From a virus (taxonomy: Duplodnaviria > Heunggongvirae > Uroviricota > Caudoviricetes), in the IMG/VR virus record IMGVR_UViG_2648501787_000012: a DNA stretch of 14,572 nt; one strand, written 5' to 3'. How positions within the stretch are numbered: position 1 is the first letter of the stretch; every line of letters starts with the position of its first letter. The notes beneath the pieces are model-generated. The model had not been told where the DNA came from. It did not search any database and saw only the letters and a program-made list of their open reading frames with translations. Shown here one piece after another: positions 1 to 9,871 of the stretch. The position numbers were made by a program, and so were the translations under genes.

Positions 1-1260
1 ATGCCAAAACTCACAGATATGCAGATCCGCGCATGGATAAAGGCGGGAGACAGATTTGATGGCAAGGCAGACGGCAACGGCCTTTATATTTGCTACCCCA
101 AAAACTACACAGCCCCGTTCTGGCGATTCCGCTATAAGCTCGCAGGAAAGCAGCGGGCTATGGTTATAGGCTCTTACTCCGAACTGTCACTATCAAAAGC
201 CAGAGAAACAGCAAAAGAGCTGTCAGCCAGAGTTGCTCTTGGCTATGACGTAGCAGCAGAGAAACAGGAACGAAAAGCTGAAGCACTGGCAAAAATGGAG
301 GCTGAGAAAAACGCCATGCGTGTTTCAGATCTGGCCTCCGAATACTTCGAGCGCCAGATACTTCCGAGATGGAAACATCCCGATATCCTTCGCCGGAGAA
401 TTGATAAGGATATTAACCCCTGCATTGGGCATATGAAGGTAGAGGACGTTAAGCCACGCCACATTGACGACATGTTGAAAGGTATCGTTGACCGAGGAGC
501 ACCAACGATAGCAACAGATGTATTACGCTGGACACGCCGTATCTTTGACTACGGGATAAAACGCCACGCTCTGGAGATAAACCCTTGTTCAGCGTTTGAA
601 GTATCTGATGCTGGTGGTAAAGAGGTTTCCCGCGACCGTTGGCTAACTCGCGATGAGCTTATCAGGCTATTCGAGGCTATGCGCACCGCAAAAGGATTCA
701 GCCGCCAGAACGAACTGACATTTAAGCTATTGCTGGCACTATGCGTTCGTAAGATGGAGTTATGCGCCGCACGATGGGAAGAGTTTGATTTAGATGGTGC
801 GGTATGGCATTTGCCGGAAGAACGCAGCAAAAACGGAGACCCTATTGATATACCTCTACCTTCCCCAGCCGTTGAATGGTTGAGAGAGCTACACACCTTT
901 TCATGTAATAGCGCATGGGTGCTTCCAGCCAGGAAGATGCAAAACAGAATGATCCCACATATTCAGGAAAGCACTTTGCCCGTAGCACTGGCTAAGGTTC
1001 GCGCCGAAATGCCGGATGTGCCTAATTTCACGATTCACGACTTCCGACGCACCGCACGTACTCATTTAGCAGCGTTGGGTGTTGATCCTGTCGTGGCGGA
1101 ACGATGCCTCAATCATCGCATTAAGGGCGTAGAGGGGATTTATAACCGCCATCAGTATTTTGATGAGCGTAAAGCAGCACTGGCACAGTGGGCTGATCTG
1201 CTGGTGGCACTGGAAAGCGGAAAAGACTACAACGTAACGCCTCTCAGAAGGGCGAACTAA
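1..1260 (+). CDS. int: Tyrosine site-specific integrase (P4/CP4-57 type, with N-terminal arm-binding region)
   Basis: 419-aa ORF. C-terminal catalytic motifs readable in the translation: HDFRRTARTHL, LNH, and terminal GIYNRHQY carrying the catalytic Tyr. N-terminus (MPKLTDMQIRAWIKAG...GLYICYPKN...FWRFRYKLAGKQR) matches the arm-type DNA-binding fold typical of P4-family integrases. Window begins at the ATG, so the upstream att site is not visible. Confidence 0.93.
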   Translation: MPKLTDMQIRAWIKAGDRFDGKADGNGLYICYPKNYTAPFWRFRYKLAGKQRAMVIGSYSELSLSKARETAKELSARVALGYDVAAEKQERKAEALAKMEAEKNAMRVSDLASEYFERQILPRWKHPDILRRRIDKDINPCIGHMKVEDVKPRHIDDMLKGIVDRGAPTIATDVLRWTRRIFDYGIKRHALEINPCSAFEVSDAGGKEVSRDRWLTRDELIRLFEAMRTAKGFSRQNELTFKLLLALCVRKMELCAARWEEFDLDGAVWHLPEERSKNGDPIDIPLPSPAVEWLRELHTFSCNSAWVLPARKMQNRMIPHIQESTLPVALAKVRAEMPDVPNFTIHDFRRTARTHLAALGVDPVVAERCLNHRIKGVEGIYNRHQYFDERKAALAQWADLLVALESGKDYNVTPLRRAN

Positions 1261-3082: not shown

Positions 3083-3916
3083 ATGAACATCGAAAAAAGC
3101 AGATTAATTTCTGAGGCCGCCCCTCATCTGAACGCCTCTCTGGGCACAATTAACGGTAATGAATTTGCCGCAATTGTCCCGGTTATTCCTGGTCATATCG
3201 GTGGGCGTGAAACCAATATTGTTAGCGCAAAAGCGTTACACAAAGCGTTGGGCGTGGGAAAAGACTTCTCTACATGGATCACTGATCGCATCTCTGAATA
3301 TGACTTCACCATTGGGCACGATTACTCAGTCCATAAAACAATTTCCCCAAATTTGGGGAAAAGCCCGAATGGCGCGGCTTACAGCAAGATAAAGCACTCT
3401 GGCAGACCCGGCAAAGACTATCTGTTAAGTGTCGGAATGGCGAAAGAACTGGCAATGATCGAACGCAATGATCAGGGTCGCGCTATCCGCCGTTATTTCA
3501 TCCAGTGCGAGGAAGAATTACAGCGTACCGTGCCTGAAATCGCCGCCCGCTATCGTCGCCAGCTAAAAGCCCGTATTAGTGCCGCAAACAACTTTAAGCC
3601 AATGTGCGATGCGCTGAATATGGCCCGTGCCGAGATGGGGAAAATGACGCAGCAACACCACTACACAAACGAGAGCAATATGATTTCTCGTATCGTTCTT
3701 GGTGGGCTAACTGCTAAGCAGTGGGCGCGGATAAATGGCTATTCTGGCGAACCTCGCGACCATATGAACGCAGAACAGCTTGAGCACCTCTCATATCTCG
3801 AAAGCACCAATATCACGTTAATTGATATGGGCATGGAATATGAGCAGCGCAAAGGAGAACTCACCCGCCTGTCGCAACGCTGGCTCGCCAAGCGTCTGGA
3901 GGCGCTCAATGTCTAA
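3083..3916 (+). CDS. AntA/AntB-type phage antirepressor-like protein
   Basis: 277-aa ORF with SD GGAGA 6 nt upstream. N-terminal segment (NIVSAKALHKALGVGKDFSTWITDRI...DYLLSVGMAKELAMIERNDQGRAIRRYFIQCEEEL) resembles the AntA antirepressor domain as I recall it. Not verified by search. Confidence 0.7.
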   Translation: MNIEKSRLISEAAPHLNASLGTINGNEFAAIVPVIPGHIGGRETNIVSAKALHKALGVGKDFSTWITDRISEYDFTIGHDYSVHKTISPNLGKSPNGAAYSKIKHSGRPGKDYLLSVGMAKELAMIERNDQGRAIRRYFIQCEEELQRTVPEIAARYRRQLKARISAANNFKPMCDALNMARAEMGKMTQQHHYTNESNMISRIVLGGLTAKQWARINGYSGEPRDHMNAEQLEHLSYLESTNITLIDMGMEYEQRKGELTRLSQRWLAKRLEALNV

Positions 3917-4088
3917 GCCAACAGGAACACCACAACCACAAAAACGCTACAAAGATGCCCACGGAGCACTCGTTACTGTCGAAAGCGTGTCTCACAACCG
4001 AGTGACGTTTTATCGCGACGGGTATCAATCGCCATGCGTACAACCGCTGGCGCGTTTCATGAAGGAGTTCGCGGAGGTTAACCAATGA
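3909..4088 (+). CDS. Small hypothetical protein (59 aa)
   Basis: ATG at 3909 overlaps the upstream stop (ATGTCTAA) and is preceded by a strong SD, GGAGG at 3898-3902. The track ORF 3822..4088 is in the same frame, but its first Met has no RBS and would overlap the upstream gene by about 95 nt. Confidence 0.55.
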   Translation: MSKPTGTPQPQKRYKDAHGALVTVESVSHNRVTFYRDGYQSPCVQPLARFMKEFAEVNQ

Positions 4089-5152
4089 TACCCGTCCAGA
4101 AGAAGACATTTTCACTGGCTGGTATGTCGCCAAAATCCAGCAATATGACGGCAAAGTCAGGCATTAATACAGCAGATACAAGCAAAGTTTATCATTTGCT
4201 GGTGGTCGGAACGGATGCCTTAACCATACCAGAAATCTCGGGCGATGATATTAGCATTGAGAAGGTCAGCGGCTGCGCCAGAAAATTTCTGGTCGTAGAT
4301 GATGTCTTCCGCTCGCGTAGTGACTCCACAAAAACCTTCATCCGCGCGCGTGACGTTAACGAAATGAGCGCGATGTACTGTGCATCTGGTGCTTCCAATA
4401 GCGAGTTTTCGGAGTCCATAAAAAAGAGCTTGCCGTTATGCGGCAACACGGTTTATGGTTATAAGGCACCTCATAAAACGGGTGCCGGGATTGGCGTCCT
4501 GGTAAATCGAATGGCGACATATGACGCGCCGAGCGTCTTTTTTTATGTCGTAGGTCTGACTCACCCATTTTTTGGGCGTTGGTGTATAATCCAGCGCCTT
4601 TGTCAATCAATGGTGGCTCAGGCAGGGGCTTCTTCGGAAGCGCCGGTATCCATTCGAGCCGGTTACGCCAACCCTGTCTGGGCTACCACCAGCGAAATTG
4701 GCGTTTCCGGTGGTAGCGTTACATGCTATCGAATGGAGGCTGCCACATGCTGGCTACTACCCCTACCCAAAAACCGCAATTTATCTGGATTATCGCCGCA
4801 GTTCGCCGCGATTGCCCGACAATTACCGCCAGAATTCATCATATTGCTGCCGAGTCTGAACGCGATGCTCGCCGTTCTCTGGTGCGCGATCACGTCTGCT
4901 TTTTTGCTGGTCGTATCCGCATGGAGGTGGCACATGATTAAAACCTACGATGTGCATATGGATCCCCTCGAACGCACAAGCCAGATCATCACACTGACAG
5001 AAGTGATTAACGACATTCTGGTGAGCAACTCTCCCTCACGAGACGAAAGACTGAAGGCGTTACTCGCGATATTGGATCTCGCCGTTCGTGACGTTCATTT
5101 CCTGCTGGAAGGTGGCGAAATGCCAGTAAAAACGGGGGCAACCAATGAATAA
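4085..5152 (+). CDS. Uncertain long ORF (355 aa), probably a chimeric open frame rather than one protein
   Basis: ATG at 4085 overlaps the upstream stop (ATGA) and has a strong SD (GGAGG 4073-4077). Codon choice looks coding-like from 4085 to about 4580. The same frame then runs without a stop through the candidate RNA region and through the Icd-like gene (different frame) where its codons look poor (cta cta ccc cta ... tta), and merges with the 72-aa ORF at 4934. Either a real 5' gene whose end is obscured (frameshift/pseudogene) or a fortuitous open frame. Confidence 0.3.
4595..4725 (+). ncRNA. Candidate CI/C4-type antisense immunity RNA (P4 CI RNA / P1 C4 / IsrK-like)
   Basis: Perfect -10 TATAAT at 4585-4590 with a weak -35. 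GC-rich structured segment follows: UUCG-tetraloop hairpin GCTTC-TTCG-GAAGC (4628-4641), a short CCGG/CCGG stem (4643-4662) presenting the loop TATCCATTCGAG, and a 9-bp stem GCTACCACC (4682-4690) / GGTGGTAGC (4709-4717). Loop bases TCCATTCGA (4649-4657) are exactly complementary to TCGAATGGA (4729-4737), which overlaps the SD of the Icd-like gene, and to TCGAATGG upstream (4507-4514). Boundaries are approximate. Confidence 0.35.
4747..4941 (+). CDS. Host cell division inhibitor Icd-like small protein
   Basis: 64-aa ORF ([22 protein letters not shown]...[24 protein letters not shown]) with strong SD GGAGG (4735-4739) 7 nt upstream and E. coli-like codon choice. The ...SER.ARR.L.RD.V.FFAGR motif matches my recollection of the Icd-like family that follows C4-type RNAs. 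The track ORF starts at 4723, but 4747 has the RBS. Confidence 0.55.
   Translation: MLATTPTQKPQFIWIIAAVRRDCPTITARIHHIAAESERDARRSLVRDHVCFFAGRIRMEVAHD
4934..5152 (+). CDS. Small hypothetical protein (72 aa)
   Basis: ATG overlaps the Icd-like stop (cacATGATTAAa) and is preceded by GGAGGTGG (4924-4931). Good codon choice. Same frame as the uncertain 355-aa ORF, so it may be that ORF's C-terminus. Confidence 0.45.
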   Translation: MIKTYDVHMDPLERTSQIITLTEVINDILVSNSPSRDERLKALLAILDLAVRDVHFLLEGGEMPVKTGATNE

Positions 5153-5339
5153 CTCAATTAATACCCCTCGCCTTACGTCCGCACTTCAATTAATCGAGCA
5201 AGCAGCGGCTGTCCTGGTTGCTGTCAGTCTTTCGGCTGAAGAAATGGACGCTACTGATGTCGTGGATGCGATTAAAGCGTGCTCATCTTTGGTTAACGAT
5301 GCCCGTGCAGAGCTGGTAATTCTTGGGGGTGAAAAATGA
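5145..5339 (+). CDS. Small hypothetical protein (64 aa)
   Basis: Start overlaps upstream stop (ATGAATAA); part of a coupled small-gene array. Confidence 0.6.
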   Translation: MNNSINTPRLTSALQLIEQAAAVLVAVSLSAEEMDATDVVDAIKACSSLVNDARAELVILGGEK

Positions 5340-5599
5340 ATATCAACTTAATTTATCGTCATCCGTGTGAGCTGGAAATTGAATCATTGCTGAGCCGTGA
5401 AGAACCATATCCAGACACATTCACTCTTGCAGATCGCACGACTGAACGGCTTACCAGAGCGCGCACAGGTCTGGTTCATGTGATGAATGAGATTCTTCCA
5501 TCGGTGGGAGGGGAACAGGCGACAGTAATCACTAGCTGGCTACAAAAAGTTACCTCTCTGATAGATATCAGTTTAATCGATGCGGAGAGTGCGAAATGA
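5336..5599 (+). CDS. Small hypothetical protein (87 aa)
   Basis: Start overlaps upstream stop (ATGA); same array. Confidence 0.6.
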   Translation: MNINLIYRHPCELEIESLLSREEPYPDTFTLADRTTERLTRARTGLVHVMNEILPSVGGEQATVITSWLQKVTSLIDISLIDAESAK

Positions 5600-6764: not shown

Positions 6765-7128
6765 AAATGCAGAAATGGCGCTTAGCTCCGCAATCGGAGA
6801 GCAGGTGGCAAAGATTGCTGGTGCTGTGTGGATTCATAACCTTCATTCTACTGGTGAAGAGAAAATGGCAATTCAGACGCCAGAGGGACGCACTATTACT
6901 ACATCTCTGAAGCCGTCAGATGTTTGTGATCTGATTTGCGCATTCATGTACCCAGCAATGAGGACTGTCCACGGCGATAAGTGGAAACTTGCGACAACCG
7001 CTGAATTTGATATGTGGCTAAACAATGATGGCATGCTGACTGATTACGGAATAACCAAGTGGCAGATGCTGGTTAGCCATATCGCAAACGCTATAGACCA
7101 CGTGGGGTACGGTGATGCGAAACATTGA
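6757..7128 (+). CDS. Hypothetical protein (123 aa)
   Basis: Start overlaps upstream stop (ATGCGTGA); its 3' end overlaps the primase start. Confidence 0.65.
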   Translation: MRENAEMALSSAIGEQVAKIAGAVWIHNLHSTGEEKMAIQTPEGRTITTSLKPSDVCDLICAFMYPAMRTVHGDKWKLATTAEFDMWLNNDGMLTDYGITKWQMLVSHIANAIDHVGYGDAKH

Positions 7129-9871
7129 TCTTATCCGTCAGGTTATCAGTGCGTCTGAAAACAACTGGCCTCATGTGCTGGGCTGCCTGAACATAAATGT
7201 CCCTGACTCTCCGCGCCGTCATGCTCCCTGCCCTGCATGTGGGGGCAAAGATCGATTCCGGTTCGATGACAACGGGCGCGGTAGCTTCATCTGTAATCAG
7301 TGCGGCGCTGGTGATGGGCTGGATTTAATTAAACGCGTAAATAACTGCGACACAACAGAGGCGGCGCTGCTTGCCGCTGATGTTCTGGGTATTGATTACC
7401 GGACAACGGAAACACCAGAAGCCACCAGCCAGAAACGGGAACAACTGGAAACCGAGCGCCAGCAACGCGAACAGGAGCGCCTGAAAAGGGCGGAGAAGGA
7501 CGAACAACAAAGACGGGATACGTTTTCCCGTCAGTTTGATGACATGCGCAGAAAGGCTGTAAACGGCAAATCTGATTATCTGGTTGCGAAAGGGGTAGGT
7601 GATTTTACATTCCCCGTGTTGCCCGATGGATCTCTGTTGCTGGCGCTGGTGGATAAATCCGGCGCAGTCACAGCAGCACAGACTATTACCTCACATGGTG
7701 AAAAAAGACTCCTGACAGGTTCAGCAAAGCGGGGGGCATATCACGCCATAAACGCACCAGAAACAACACAGAGCATCTTAATCGCAGAAGGGCTGGCAAC
7801 GGCATTATCTGCCCATTTAATTCGTCCAGAGGCGCTGACAGTGGCGGCGATTGATGCCGGGAACCTGTTATATGTCGCCCAGGTACTGCGGGATAAATTT
7901 CCTTCAGCACAAATCATCATTGCTGCGGATAACGACCACAGCGAAGGAAGACAAAACACGGGGAGAATAGCAGCAGAAAAAGCAGCTTTATCTGTTTCTG
8001 GATGGGTGGCATTACCCCCGACAGGTCACAAAGCAGACTGGAATGATTACCACCAAAAACACGGCATTAAATGCGCCACAGAAGCGTTCAATAAGTCAAT
8101 GTACCAACCACAGGGTAATGGCGTGAAACAGGAGCCACAGACCATTGAGGGAAGCGATTTTAAGGTTATGGATACCGACCCACTGAAACCAAGAATAGAA
8201 AGCCGCGAGGATGGTATTTATTGGGTATCTCCGAGAGCTGACAGCCAGAGTGGAGAAATCATCAATAACGAAAGCTGGTTATGTTCTCCGTTAAGCGTTA
8301 TCGGTACTGGCAGAGACGATAAAGACCAGTATCTCATTCTTCGCTGGCTGTCGTTTGGTTCTGAAACGCCGACAACCGCTGCCATTCCACTGGCTGATAT
8401 TGGTGAACGTGAAGGATGGCGCACACTTAAAGCTGGTGGGGTAAATGTCACGACCAAAAGCAGCCTCAGAGCAATACTGGCAGACTGGCTACAACGCAGT
8501 GGCTCTCGTGAATTGTGGCGTGTTGCTCATGCCACTGGCTGGCAATGCGGAGCGTACATCATGCCTGATGGGGAAATCATCGGAACACCTGAAAATCCTG
8601 TGCTGTTCAGCGGGAGAAGCTCAGCCGCAGCCGGATATACCGTCTCAGGGAGCGCGCAAAGCTGGCGTGATAACGTGGCGCGTCTGGCCTTTGGTAACTA
8701 TTCAATGATGACCGGGATCGGCGCAGCACTGGCAGCACCATTGATTGGGCTGGTGGGCGCTGACGGGTTCGGCATTCATTTCTATGAGCAGTCGAGCGCA
8801 GGTAAGACCACCACGGCAAACGTGGCGAGCAGCTTATACGGCAACCCTGATTTACTGCGGCTGACGTGGTACGGAACCGCGCTGGGGCTGGCAAATGAGG
8901 CCGCCGCCCACAATGACGGACTAATGCCGCTTGATGAAGTTGGTCAGGGCGCTGATCCTGTCAGCGTTTCACAGTCTGCCTATGCGTTATTTAACGGTGT
9001 AGGGAAACTGCAAGGCGCTAAAGATGGTGGAAACCGGGATCTAAAACGCTGGCGTACAGTGGCAATCAGCACCGGAGAAATGGATTTAGAAACATTTATC
9101 GCTACTTCCGGGCGAAAAACCAAAGCCGGGCAACTGGTGCGACTGCTGAATATTCCGTTGAGTAAAGCAGTACGCTTTCACGATTACCAGAACGGAAAAC
9201 AGCACGCAGACGCACTGAAAGACGCTTACCAGCATCACCATGGCGCAGCCGGGCGTGAGTGGATTAAATGGCTGGCAGACCACCAGCAACAGGCTATTAA
9301 AACTGTTCGTGATTGCGAAAGCAGATGGAGAAGCCTGATCCCACCCGATTATGGTGAGCAGGTTCACCGTGTAGCCGCGCGATTTGCCATTCTGGAGGCC
9401 GCATTGTTGTTAGGCGAGGTTGTAACAGGCTGGGATGCTCAGACATGCCGTGATGCGATACAGCACAGCTATAACGCATGGTTGCGCGAGTTCGGCACAG
9501 GTAACAAAGAGCATCAGCAGATTATTGAACAAACGGAGGCATTTCTTAATGCCTATGGGCTTAGCCGTTTTGCACCATTTCCATACAGCCCGGCAGATTT
9601 GCCCATCAAAGATTTAGCCGGATACCGTCAGCGTGGAGAACATGACGAAAGCCCAATGATTTTCTACACATTCCCGGCCACATTTGAAAAGGAGATCGCA
9701 TGTGGTTTCAACGCAAAACAGTTTGCTGAAGTGTTGAAAAAAGCCGGGATGCTAACCCCACCAAACAGCGGTCGTGGATACCAAAGAAAATCACCACGTA
9801 TTCAGGGACGACAAATAAACGTTTATGTACTCAATTACCAGCCAGGAGATTATAACTCATCTGAAGAATGA
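7112..9871 (+). CDS. P4 alpha-type DNA primase/helicase (zinc ribbon + TOPRIM + P-loop NTPase)
   Basis: 919-aa ORF. N-terminal zinc ribbon CPACGGKDRFRFDDNGRGSFICNQCG; TOPRIM signatures ILIAEGLATALS and IIIAADNDHSEGR; Walker A-like FYEQSSAGKTTT in the C-terminal half. Domain order matches phage P4 alpha and related satellite primases. Confidence 0.93.
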   Translation: MMRNIDLIRQVISASENNWPHVLGCLNINVPDSPRRHAPCPACGGKDRFRFDDNGRGSFICNQCGAGDGLDLIKRVNNCDTTEAALLAADVLGIDYRTTETPEATSQKREQLETERQQREQERLKRAEKDEQQRRDTFSRQFDDMRRKAVNGKSDYLVAKGVGDFTFPVLPDGSLLLALVDKSGAVTAAQTITSHGEKRLLTGSAKRGAYHAINAPETTQSILIAEGLATALSAHLIRPEALTVAAIDAGNLLYVAQVLRDKFPSAQIIIAADNDHSEGRQNTGRIAAEKAALSVSGWVALPPTGHKADWNDYHQKHGIKCATEAFNKSMYQPQGNGVKQEPQTIEGSDFKVMDTDPLKPRIESREDGIYWVSPRADSQSGEIINNESWLCSPLSVIGTGRDDKDQYLILRWLSFGSETPTTAAIPLADIGEREGWRTLKAGGVNVTTKSSLRAILADWLQRSGSRELWRVAHATGWQCGAYIMPDGEIIGTPENPVLFSGRSSAAAGYTVSGSAQSWRDNVARLAFGNYSMMTGIGAALAAPLIGLVGADGFGIHFYEQSSAGKTTTANVASSLYGNPDLLRLTWYGTALGLANEAAAHNDGLMPLDEVGQGADPVSVSQSAYALFNGVGKLQGAKDGGNRDLKRWRTVAISTGEMDLETFIATSGRKTKAGQLVRLLNIPLSKAVRFHDYQNGKQHADALKDAYQHHHGAAGREWIKWLADHQQQAIKTVRDCESRWRSLIPPDYGEQVHRVAARFAILEAALLLGEVVTGWDAQTCRDAIQHSYNAWLREFGTGNKEHQQIIEQTEAFLNAYGLSRFAPFPYSPADLPIKDLAGYRQRGEHDESPMIFYTFPATFEKEIACGFNAKQFAEVLKKAGMLTPPNSGRGYQRKSPRIQGRQINVYVLNYQPGDYNSSEE

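Follow-up and report, generated by a model that had tools for sequence, protein, structure and literature searches.

Why should one reading frame stay open across two small genes and a candidate RNA? The window analysed here is a 14,572-nucleotide stretch of viral DNA (Caudoviricetes; IMG/VR record IMGVR_UViG_2648501787_000012). It contains a long frame that we call ORF355, for which a gene decayed by a frameshift, a genuine fusion and a chance open frame had all been put forward in the original prediction. The frame and its ribosome-binding site are as follows:

4085 to 5152, plus strand: ORF355, an eta-type ('ash family') read-through ORF of 355 codons, with its ATG at 4085 and its stop at 5150-5152

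4073 to 4077, plus strand: ribosome-binding site of ORF355, GGAGG, 7 nt 5' of the ATG, read from the sequence

The 1,068-nt open frame described in the original prediction is confirmed, with zero stop codons between 4085 and 5149. A stop-free run of 355 codons has a probability of (61/64)^355, or ~4e-8, and the length of ORF355 thus lies far outside chance. The proposed start of a gene at 4085 also holds. In addition to the GGAGG, the ATGA at 4085-4088 overlaps the start with the stop of an upstream DUF4222 gene (3909-4088), and this strong context is kept in relatives such as L082. At the other end, the next gene begins at 5145 and thereby overlaps the ORF355 stop.

We identified the exact ORF355 protein on 164 contigs and allelic forms of 355 and 342 aa on hundreds to at least 1000 contigs of E. 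coli and Salmonella. The frame recurs at the same length in hundreds of independent assemblies, and we therefore reject a sequencing error (an indel at 4500-4750 had been suggested as a check) as well as programmed frameshifting. ORF355 is named an 'ash family protein' in RefSeq and matches Phage_ASH (Pfam accession PF10554, 105.2 bits, gathering cut-off 26) over residues 124-232 and profile positions 1-106 of 107. In some genomes, PGAP calls the same DNA a pseudogene, and many distant copies are labelled 'frameshifted/incomplete'. The surrounding element is a P4-like satellite, with an early operon that runs from an alpA-like gene to the primase.

In nucleotides, the PF10554 match spans 4454-4780, the segment that holds isrK, C4 and the start of icd. 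This middle third of ORF355 is what a P4-type RNA immunity cassette spells when translated; in this cassette, an internal promoter is followed by a seqA/IsrK-like leader with a terminator, a CI/C4 RNA, seqC and then kil/icd:

4430 to 4459, plus strand: predicted internal promoter, equivalent to P4 PLE (-35 TTGCCG at 4430-4435, 18-nt spacer, -10 TATGGT at 4454-4459)

4466 to 4543, plus strand: seqA/IsrK-like leader RNA (Rfam isrK, 67.1 bits, gathering score 50)

4606 to 4693, plus strand: CI/C4-type antisense immunity RNA (Rfam C4, 79.5 bits, gathering score 45)

4697 to 4708, plus strand: seqC (ATTGGCGTTTCC), the second seqB target, just 5' of the icd ribosome-binding site

The original prediction had correctly led the frame through a candidate RNA region, where two Rfam matches exceed their gathering scores. 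It had missed that this region is a P4-type immunity cassette. A generic promoter scan made no call at 4430-4459, where only 8 of 12 consensus positions match. The TTG and TAT columns of the predicted promoter are invariant over eight cassettes including P4, the segment lines up with the promoter region of P4, and 15 relatives show no variation at 4421-4465. The leader, an element also present in P4, carries seqA (ATTGGCGTCC, 4490-4499) on its second hairpin and ends in an intrinsic terminator (hairpin 4523-4537 plus a T-run) found by a terminator scan. This terminator (about 4523-4544) sits inside ORF355.

Compensatory changes are found at 9 of 15 pairs in the consensus fold of the leader and at 18 of 28 pairs in that of C4. 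The single-stranded stretch TTACGCCAACCC of the CI/C4 RNA (4663-4674) contains seqB, and this CI loop is complementary to both seqA and seqC. All three sequences co-vary between immunity types, and five specificity triplets (seqA/seqB/seqC) are recognisable by eye in the cassette alignment. Among 33 cassettes, the seqB:seqA duplex has an energy of -19.7 kcal/mol within a cassette vs -13.5 between cassettes (p = 2e-16), and the seqB:seqC duplex reaches -18.5 kcal/mol with its own seqB vs -12.3 with a foreign one (p = 6e-12). Judging from their sequence, the cassette RNAs are functional units.

The arrangement is that of P4. In P4, the same Pfam domain (PF10554) lies on the eta/'cI' ORF, over isrK-like and C4 matches, and Kil is the last 65 aa of this ORF. 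P4 also has the same order of upstream gene, coupled start, promoter, leader and terminator, CI, seqC, kil/icd and a next gene overlapping by 8 nt, within the same early operon context from alpA-like gene to primase. There are differences in detail. P4 eta begins ~25 codons 5' of the promoter, whereas ORF355 begins 127 codons 5' of it, and part of this segment is antisense to the relic of a terminase gene. In P4, eta shares the frame of kil and stops with it, whereas ORF355 is offset by +1 relative to icd, lacks Icd and ends with a different gene, ORF72. The spacer between terminator and CI is 45 nt shorter in the window than in P4, and most members of the PF10554 family are of the eta type with 175-188 aa, compared with 355 aa here. 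ORF355 is a homologue of P4 eta and of Pfam Phage_ASH, which the original prediction had overlooked, and is a form of the known P4 eta device, neither a decayed gene nor a new kind of system. It probably acts as the counterpart of P4 eta, a 'bridge' frame that spans the RNA immunity cassette within the early operon of its P4-like satellite.

What is conserved in ORF355 is its translatability, not its protein. We computed pN/pS on ungapped homologues and dropped multi-locus counts of variable sites, given mosaic non-homologous segments. The ratio is 0.51 over 4085-4420, ~0.9 over the RNA cassette, ~1.6 over icd and 0.30 over ORF72. Within the cassette, it is 0.90 in the ORF355 frame vs 0.93 and 0.84 out of frame (13 cassettes, mean nucleotide identity 64%). 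The frame had been described as switching from coding-like to non-coding-like; this is only partly borne out, and the codon-usage score stays best in the ORF355 frame up to about 4700. As a log-odds measure, codon usage failed to separate coding from non-coding sequence inside ORF355, where it is uninformative because the stop-free frame scores best by construction.

We next consider how far the open frame extends to related cassettes. To sample them, we searched with a DNA pattern from the icd ribosome-binding site, a pattern that itself lies within the Ash frame; an nhmmer profile then removed about half of its 120 hits, which had matched by chance in unrelated phyla. The Icd protein alignment yielded no conserved stretch that could seed a locus search. 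Among 24 cassettes with a short Icd (P4-type), which come from different species and elements and are phylogenetically non-independent, so that the counts overstate statistical support, the Ash frame has no stop between the transcription start and the icd ribosome-binding site in 22, vs 3 and 0 for the other two frames. The class stays open despite identities down to 42%. Cassette lengths are 270, 276, 267, 273, 315 and 231 nt, with two exceptions, and the differences are nearly all multiples of 3. E. coli alleles with ~40% divergent cassettes and a 39-nt deletion still keep the frame. In all 24 P4-type cassettes, P4 included, the start codon lies upstream of the promoter and overlaps or abuts the stop of the upstream ORF.

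A second class of 28 cassettes combines the same RNAs with a long icd. In this class, stops and frame-breaking indels accumulate, and the Ash frame is open in 4 of 28, equal to the control frame. An open frame is thus not a necessary consequence of the RNA sequence by itself. We also considered whether loss of the frame in the long-icd class is tied to a divergent upstream gene and rejected this, as most have a co-oriented upstream ORF. In the P4-type lineage, the frame has been shown here to be kept stop-free and in register without selection on the encoded amino acids. With 22 of 24 cassettes stop-free and lengths that change in multiples of 3, a chance open frame, one of the options originally offered, fails for 4085-4746.

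It could still be argued that the long ORF is an annotation artefact, open through constraint on RNA and promoter in a young lineage, with ribosomes that enter at 4085 serving a short N-terminal peptide or nothing. The identity of the Ash 'domain' with the RNA cassette, the absence of amino acid selection in the cassette, the PGAP pseudogene and 'frameshifted/incomplete' calls, the existence of truncated alleles and the roughly 50% chance that the icd-crossing stretch is open all fit this explanation. We nevertheless consider it unlikely, given that the same RNAs leave the frame open in so few of the long-icd class and in nearly all of the P4-type class, even at identities down to 42%. The near-uniform preservation of register across length changes, the coupling of every P4-type ORF start to an upstream gene, and the strong and conserved ribosome-binding site and ATGA overlap at 4085 likewise argue against it. 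In addition, P4 eta is reportedly translated and acts through its translation, as far as the account in PMC10111431 relates.

We judge it improbable that ORF355 is a genuine multi-domain 'Bro network' regulatory protein, with a folded Ash segment and an RNA overlap that amounts to true dual coding. PF10554 and four PHROG 'transcriptional regulator/repressor' families match the Ash segment, the Phage_ASH domain occurs in 301 protein clusters and has been listed among Bro-network domains (PMC10111431), the frame is conserved and intact, and codon usage prefers it to about 4700. The cassette ratio is however the same as in the two wrong frames, and the conserved residues fall on the C4 stems and on the terminator, whose hairpin and T-run read in this frame as DAPSVFF, the most conserved 'motif'. 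AlphaFold gives residues 1-236 a pLDDT <50 and no secondary structure (from an alignment of only 44 sequences), and what the PF10554 model describes is the RNA cassette, with no demonstrable protein fold behind it. The flanks of the ORF are non-homologous between lineages, with N-termini of 17-127 codons, and the C-terminus varies between Kil in frame and Kil out of frame followed by a different gene. Finally, the PHROG labels derive from the old P4 'cI repressor' annotation, whereas immunity acts via CI RNA (PMC4825925).

A decaying gene with an ancestral end near 4550-4580, its stop lost by local mutation or a change in T-run length, is very improbable, since the rare short alleles that end at 155, 162, 167/168 or 210 aa (most of them cut short by a change of frame in or ahead of the terminator T-run) are found on 1-5 contigs each while ORF355 is intact in most relatives (355- and 342-aa forms on 164 to at least 1000 contigs), the read-through form also occurs in P4 and in other species, and no relative has a conserved stop at about 4580. 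Decay by frameshift, as originally suggested, is not compatible with orthologues that keep the full-length ORF on this scale, an outcome that the original prediction had itself named as refuting. The rare truncated alleles do indicate that the open frame is not indispensable.

Downstream of the cassette, ORF355 traverses two small genes:

4747 to 4941, plus strand: icd/kil homologue, 64 aa, with a match to NF033153, likely start ATG 4747 and ribosome-binding site GGAGG at 4735-4739

4934 to 5152, plus strand: ORF72, a separate small gene with its own ribosome-binding site GGAGG at 4923-4927, forming the C-terminal 72 residues of ORF355

The longest Icd-like ORF spans 4723-4941. Its product matches NCBIfam NF033153 (71 bits, cut-off 25) and aligns with P4 Kil. 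Read in its own frame, icd has a pN/pS of 0.30; in the ORF355 frame, which is +1 to icd, the value is 1.6-1.7. The earlier remark that this gene is crossed in a poor frame was accurate. Compared with P4, there is a net 1-nt frame shift at the junction of ribosome-binding site and ATG (GCCAC-ATG-CTG here vs GCCATC-ATG in P4), which originates from a shorter spacer and an extra Leu codon. As a result of the +1 offset, the ORF355 frame skips the Icd product, and because icd and ORF72 also overlap as ATGnnTAA, it runs into ORF72 and ends at its stop. The same two features account for the junction between ORF355 and ORF72. A genuine fusion, also proposed originally, comes closest in form, but neither the cassette nor the icd stretch shows the amino acid selection that it would imply.

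The icd offset is common to four of the other 23 P4-type cassettes (L082, L124, L096 and L040), and three of these four retain an uninterrupted read-through into the following gene. Of 19 cassettes that make no use of the +1 frame of icd, 9 nevertheless have it open (~50% chance), which rules out selection on an open frame through icd. Only this icd-crossing stretch of ORF355 looks like luck.

ORF72 is a gene in its own right, and the original prediction was correct that the long frame merges with it in frame. Its own frame has a pN/pS of 0.30, compared with 1.6-3.3 for the out-of-frame readings, and it is annotated by itself where the upstream part is absent. AlphaFold predicts a helical hairpin (pLDDT 67-82). 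Pfam, NCBIfam and PHROG searches gave no family match for ORF72, BLASTP gave no alignment with P4 epsilon, and the Derepression family (Pfam accession PF25738) was also without a match. P4 epsilon itself matches a family other than PF10554. By these comparisons, the gene in the epsilon position here appears unrelated to P4 epsilon, with which ORF72 shares only the position.

The part of ORF355 upstream of the cassette has a different character:

4085 to 4429, plus strand: N-terminal extension of ORF355, upstream of the internal promoter, weakly constrained and lineage-specific filler (pN/pS 0.51)

4199 to 4348, minus strand: remnant of a phage gene for a small terminase ('DNA-packaging protein'), lying antisense to codons 39-88 of ORF355

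The N-terminal ratio compares with 0.04-0.30 in four of five neighbouring genes and 0.56 in the fifth, orf87. It is the lowest among the six frames, and the N-terminal part may therefore have a weakly constrained peptide function. This extension matches nothing in Pfam or PHROG searches and has an AlphaFold pLDDT <40. In other species, the upstream extension ranges from 17 to 127 codons and is non-homologous. The terminase relic was identified by tblastn with the L024 protein (35 of 50 residues identical, E 3e-17, frame -1, one internal stop), and its DNA is 91.6% identical across 107 nt.

How might such a frame work? ORF355 begins upstream of the internal promoter, with its ATG 381 nt 5' of the transcription start inferred at 4466, and its start is translationally coupled to the gene before it. 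The start codon can thus be present only on transcripts that initiate at an upstream promoter. By analogy with P4, transcripts from the internal promoter would be untranslated, and pairing of CI RNA with seqA and seqC would lead to their termination, so that the replication genes would stay off. Once the upstream promoter is active, ribosomes entering at 4085 would translate the leader, the CI RNA and beyond. As in P4, translation through the cassette would suppress termination and render the transcript insensitive to immunity. The frame, being +1 to icd, would skip the Icd product, reach ORF72 and use its stop. The part of the 1999 work relayed in PMC10111431 already describes this mechanism for P4 eta, stating that eta is translated and that its translation stops immunity-dependent termination (Forti et al., 1999, J Bacteriol 181:5225).

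We put forward more tentatively, as a possibility that may well not hold, that the Phage_ASH 'family' as a whole is the translated seqA-CI cassette, with selection keeping it open only to let ribosomes from an upstream operon pass over the RNAs and thereby turn immunity off. Here, ORF72 would be delivered as a fusion C-terminus from immunity-insensitive transcripts only, with toxic Icd skipped.

Related RNA devices are found in other elements. The immI locus of P1 and P7 (c4, icd, ant) likewise has a C4-family RNA with loops complementary to upstream targets and to the icd ribosome-binding site, followed by a small protein of the Icd family, and co-varying RNA sequences set its immunity specificity. 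The Rfam model of P1/P7 c4-a1b1 matches weakly here (17.9 bits vs a gathering score of 46.7), and the AntA/AntB-type gene lies upstream of ORF355 (3083-3916), not downstream as in immI. In P1, translation of icd controls ant, and no long ORF is known to span c4. The isrK-orf45-anrP locus of Gifsy-1 in Salmonella has a member of the same Rfam isrK family with a processed C4-like RNA downstream (PMC4825925). There, a translated frame that overlaps the C4-like RNA, with conserved nucleotides and variable amino acids, serves expression of a downstream gene, and a short IsrK RNA activates translation in trans (PMC4825925). Gifsy-1 orf45 is short and starts 3' of the isrK promoter, whereas ORF355 starts far upstream, and the gene downstream of the C4-like RNA is icd here and an antirepressor in Gifsy-1. 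We also observed a 45-aa ORF with a TTG start (4579-4716) over the C4 RNA, without an evident ribosome-binding site, in a position equivalent to orf45.

These results explain a conflict in RefSeq, where the same DNA appears either as an intact 'ash family protein' or as a pseudogene plus an Icd-like gene. The units that actually function, two small RNAs together with icd and ORF72, are hidden by automated annotation, and the Pfam model used in the literature as a marker of P4 'epsilon' really marks the immunity cassette. If Phage_ASH is indeed a translated RNA cassette, a satellite-marker family of hundreds of Enterobacterales clusters would not be a protein domain. The locus clearly illustrates a reading frame that is conserved for its translatability rather than for what it encodes, and this bears on how overlapping RNA and protein signals are read and on conserved non-coding RNA in protein-family databases. 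For the satellites themselves, it means that near-identical E. coli elements carry at least five RNA immunity specificities.

The window corresponds to an E. coli satellite element of the P4 kind, and its genes overlap or almost adjoin one another all along the stretch from 2436 to the primase gene. A terminator-like hairpin with a T-run (2337-2360, + strand) lies between an ORF at 1356-2321 and the alpA-like gene. An early operon likely begins at this hairpin, and its promoter would drive transcription into ORF355, the long open frame at the centre of our analysis.

Features of the window
1-1260: integrase gene
1269-1335, + strand: int-alpA RNA (Rfam RF02996, 60.6 bits), directly 3' of the integrase gene
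2436-2639: AlpA-like HTH gene
3083-3916: AntA/B gene
3909-4088: DUF4222 gene
4085-5152, + strand: ORF355
4199-4348, - strand: relic of a phage small-terminase ('DNA-packaging protein') gene fragment
4430-4435 and 4454-4459, + strand: candidate internal promoter (TTGCCG, 18 nt, TATGGT), start near 4466
4490-4499, + strand: seqA
4663-4674, + strand: seqB
4697-4708, + strand: seqC
7112-9871: DUF927 primase gene, with small genes between it and ORF355

The original prediction observed this frame correctly and interpreted it only partly correctly. The proposed gene start is an ATG at 4085, preceded by GGAGG (4073-4077) and overlapping the upstream stop as ATGA, from which 355 codons run without a stop. 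The frame crosses the suspected RNA region, which contains isrK (4466-4543) and C4 (4606-4693) Rfam matches on the same strand. It then traverses the Icd-like gene in a different frame and is also the frame of ORF72, a 72-aa ORF (4934-5152) that has its own RBS.

Decay by frameshift, one of the explanations then offered, is contradicted by the relatives. About 1,260 out of 5,426 complete E. coli genomes contain the region, with a coverage of at least 80% in 481 records. In most genomes RefSeq gives the ORF as a 355-aa 'ash family protein', and the IMG/VR relatives, inspected for where homologues end, mostly keep the full 355 aa (11 of 14 loci). Other forms among these relatives have 342 aa (a 39-nt in-frame deletion between terminator and C4), 283 aa (the frame enters a different icd allele in frame) or 288 aa (locus L013, where a frameshift within icd, at 2163-2285, switches the long ORF to the icd frame). 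The exact window protein is found on 164 contigs, its 355-aa cluster comprises 681 members, and at least 1000 contigs carry the 342-aa allele. Forms truncated to 155-210 aa occur on 1-5 contigs each; most result from a change of frame at the terminator T-run or ahead of it. ORF355 is thus not decaying.

Annotation of the region is inconsistent. Over 3800-5400, two RefSeq genomes match the window at 100.0% and 99.9% identity, yet one is annotated with an 'ash family protein' pseudogene and an Icd-like gene (L001 4286-5142) and the other with a single intact 355-aa protein and no Icd gene (L002 786-1853). In NZ_CP119120 (1-2006), a related element starts abruptly at window position 4647, within C4, and adjoins a truncated terminase gpA gene; this could be a satellite that is rearranged or embedded in a helper.

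ORF355 is a member of the P4 eta/'Ash' class. Its Pfam Phage_ASH match (aa 124-232, nt 4454-4780) spans the isrK match, a spacer, the C4 match and the first icd codons. P4 shares this arrangement: isrK-like and C4 matches lie inside a 214-codon open frame, which is eta and whose last 65 aa are Kil, the homologue of the window Icd. According to PMC10111431, eta holds a constitutive internal promoter (citing Forti et al., 1999), the transcript from this promoter is terminated via CI/seqA pairing and processed to CI RNA, and eta translation from a late upstream promoter blocks this termination (citing Forti et al., 1999). IsrK and P4 SeqA are structural homologues, and in Gifsy-1 a translated frame whose amino-acid sequence is not conserved runs over a C4-like RNA (PMC4825925). 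The window also contains a 45-aa TTG ORF (4579-4716, + strand) that shares the frame of icd, overlaps C4 and matches in place and size orf45 of the Gifsy-1 isrK locus, whose translation activates the downstream gene (PMC4825925). PF10554 'Phage_ASH' served as the P4 epsilon marker in PMC8628076. In P4 (3889-4813, minus strand), PF10554 matches both eta and the product formerly annotated as 'cI gene product', over seqA and CI RNA, whereas P4 epsilon is a member of another family and matches PF25738 only. Judged from these matches, the 'epsilon' component of that survey is therefore a marker of the immunity cassette.

Using a DNA pattern located at the icd RBS, we sampled 53 cassettes of various species and scored open frames from start to icd RBS. 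Among the P4-type cassettes with a short Icd/Kil (n=24, including the window and P4), the Ash frame is open in 22 and the control frames in 3 and 0; the start-to-RBS length is divisible by 3, with two exceptions. Cassettes with the same RNAs and a long icd-like gene (n=28) have an open Ash frame in only 4 cases (control frames, 4 and 0) and no modulo-3 length preference, so RNA constraints alone do not keep the frame open. In every P4-type cassette the start codon lies 5' of the promoter and overlaps or abuts the preceding ORF stop, and the N-terminal extensions (17-127 codons) are unrelated in sequence. Thirteen P4-type cassettes of identical geometry are all open at a mean nucleotide identity of 64% (minimum 42%), with pN/pS of 0.90 in the Ash frame versus 0.93 and 0.84 out of frame. 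AlphaFold predicts no secondary structure for residues 1-236 (pLDDT < 50, 44-sequence alignment). The frame is thus conserved for being translatable, not as a protein. DAPSVFF, its best-conserved 'protein' motif, is the translation of the terminator hairpin with the T-run.

Within the cassette, selection acts on the RNAs. Compensatory changes occur in 18 of 28 pairs of the C4 fold and 9 of 15 pairs of the leader fold. The TTG...TAT promoter columns are invariant in an alignment of eight cassettes, and 4421-4465 does not vary in 15 relatives. A perfect TATAAT (4585-4590, + strand), 16-20 nt before the 5' end of C4, is common to several cassette types, absent in P4 and lost through the deletion in the 342-aa allele; it could give the CI/C4 RNA a promoter of its own. 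seqA, seqB and seqC vary together in five specificity types, giving at least five co-varying RNA immunity specificities (window 4484-4714; L003, L004, L016 and P4). Across 33 distinct cassettes, seqB duplexes are ~6 kcal/mol more stable with their own than with foreign seqA (p = 2e-16) or seqC (p = 6e-12). Four specificities sit on E. coli elements that are near-identical elsewhere, suggesting that recombination has exchanged the cassettes.

ORF355 has a variant architecture, with a long filler N-terminus and a +1 offset through which it skips Icd and ends in ORF72. The offset arises because the window has GCCAC-ATG-CTG in place of P4 GCCATC-ATG. The icd stretch has a pN/pS of 0.30 when read as icd and of 1.6-1.7 when read as ORF355. 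Of 19 cassettes that make no use of the icd +1 frame, 9 have it free of stops, and since icd shares an ATGnnTAA overlap with the gene that follows, this frame necessarily joins that gene; extension to 5152 is thus an easy consequence of the offset. Two loci from other species (L124 and L096) have the same offset, and their frame merges with whatever gene comes next. ORF72, which is unrelated to P4 epsilon, is a constrained gene (pN/pS 0.30) predicted by AlphaFold to form a helical hairpin. The N-terminal part (4085-4420) has no family match and a pN/pS of 0.51, compared with 0.04-0.30 in four of five neighbouring genes and 0.56 in orf87. The terminase relic, antisense to ORF355 codons 39-88, is 91.6% identical at the DNA level to intact genes of other E. 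coli prophages.

By analogy with P4, ORF355 likely functions through translation itself: ribosomes from the upstream operon would translate over the immunity RNAs and would thereby override CI-dependent termination. The system itself is already known. Our analysis adds evidence that the Pfam Ash domain is the RNA cassette, read in a frame that is free of amino-acid selection, and it adds the +1 offset variant.
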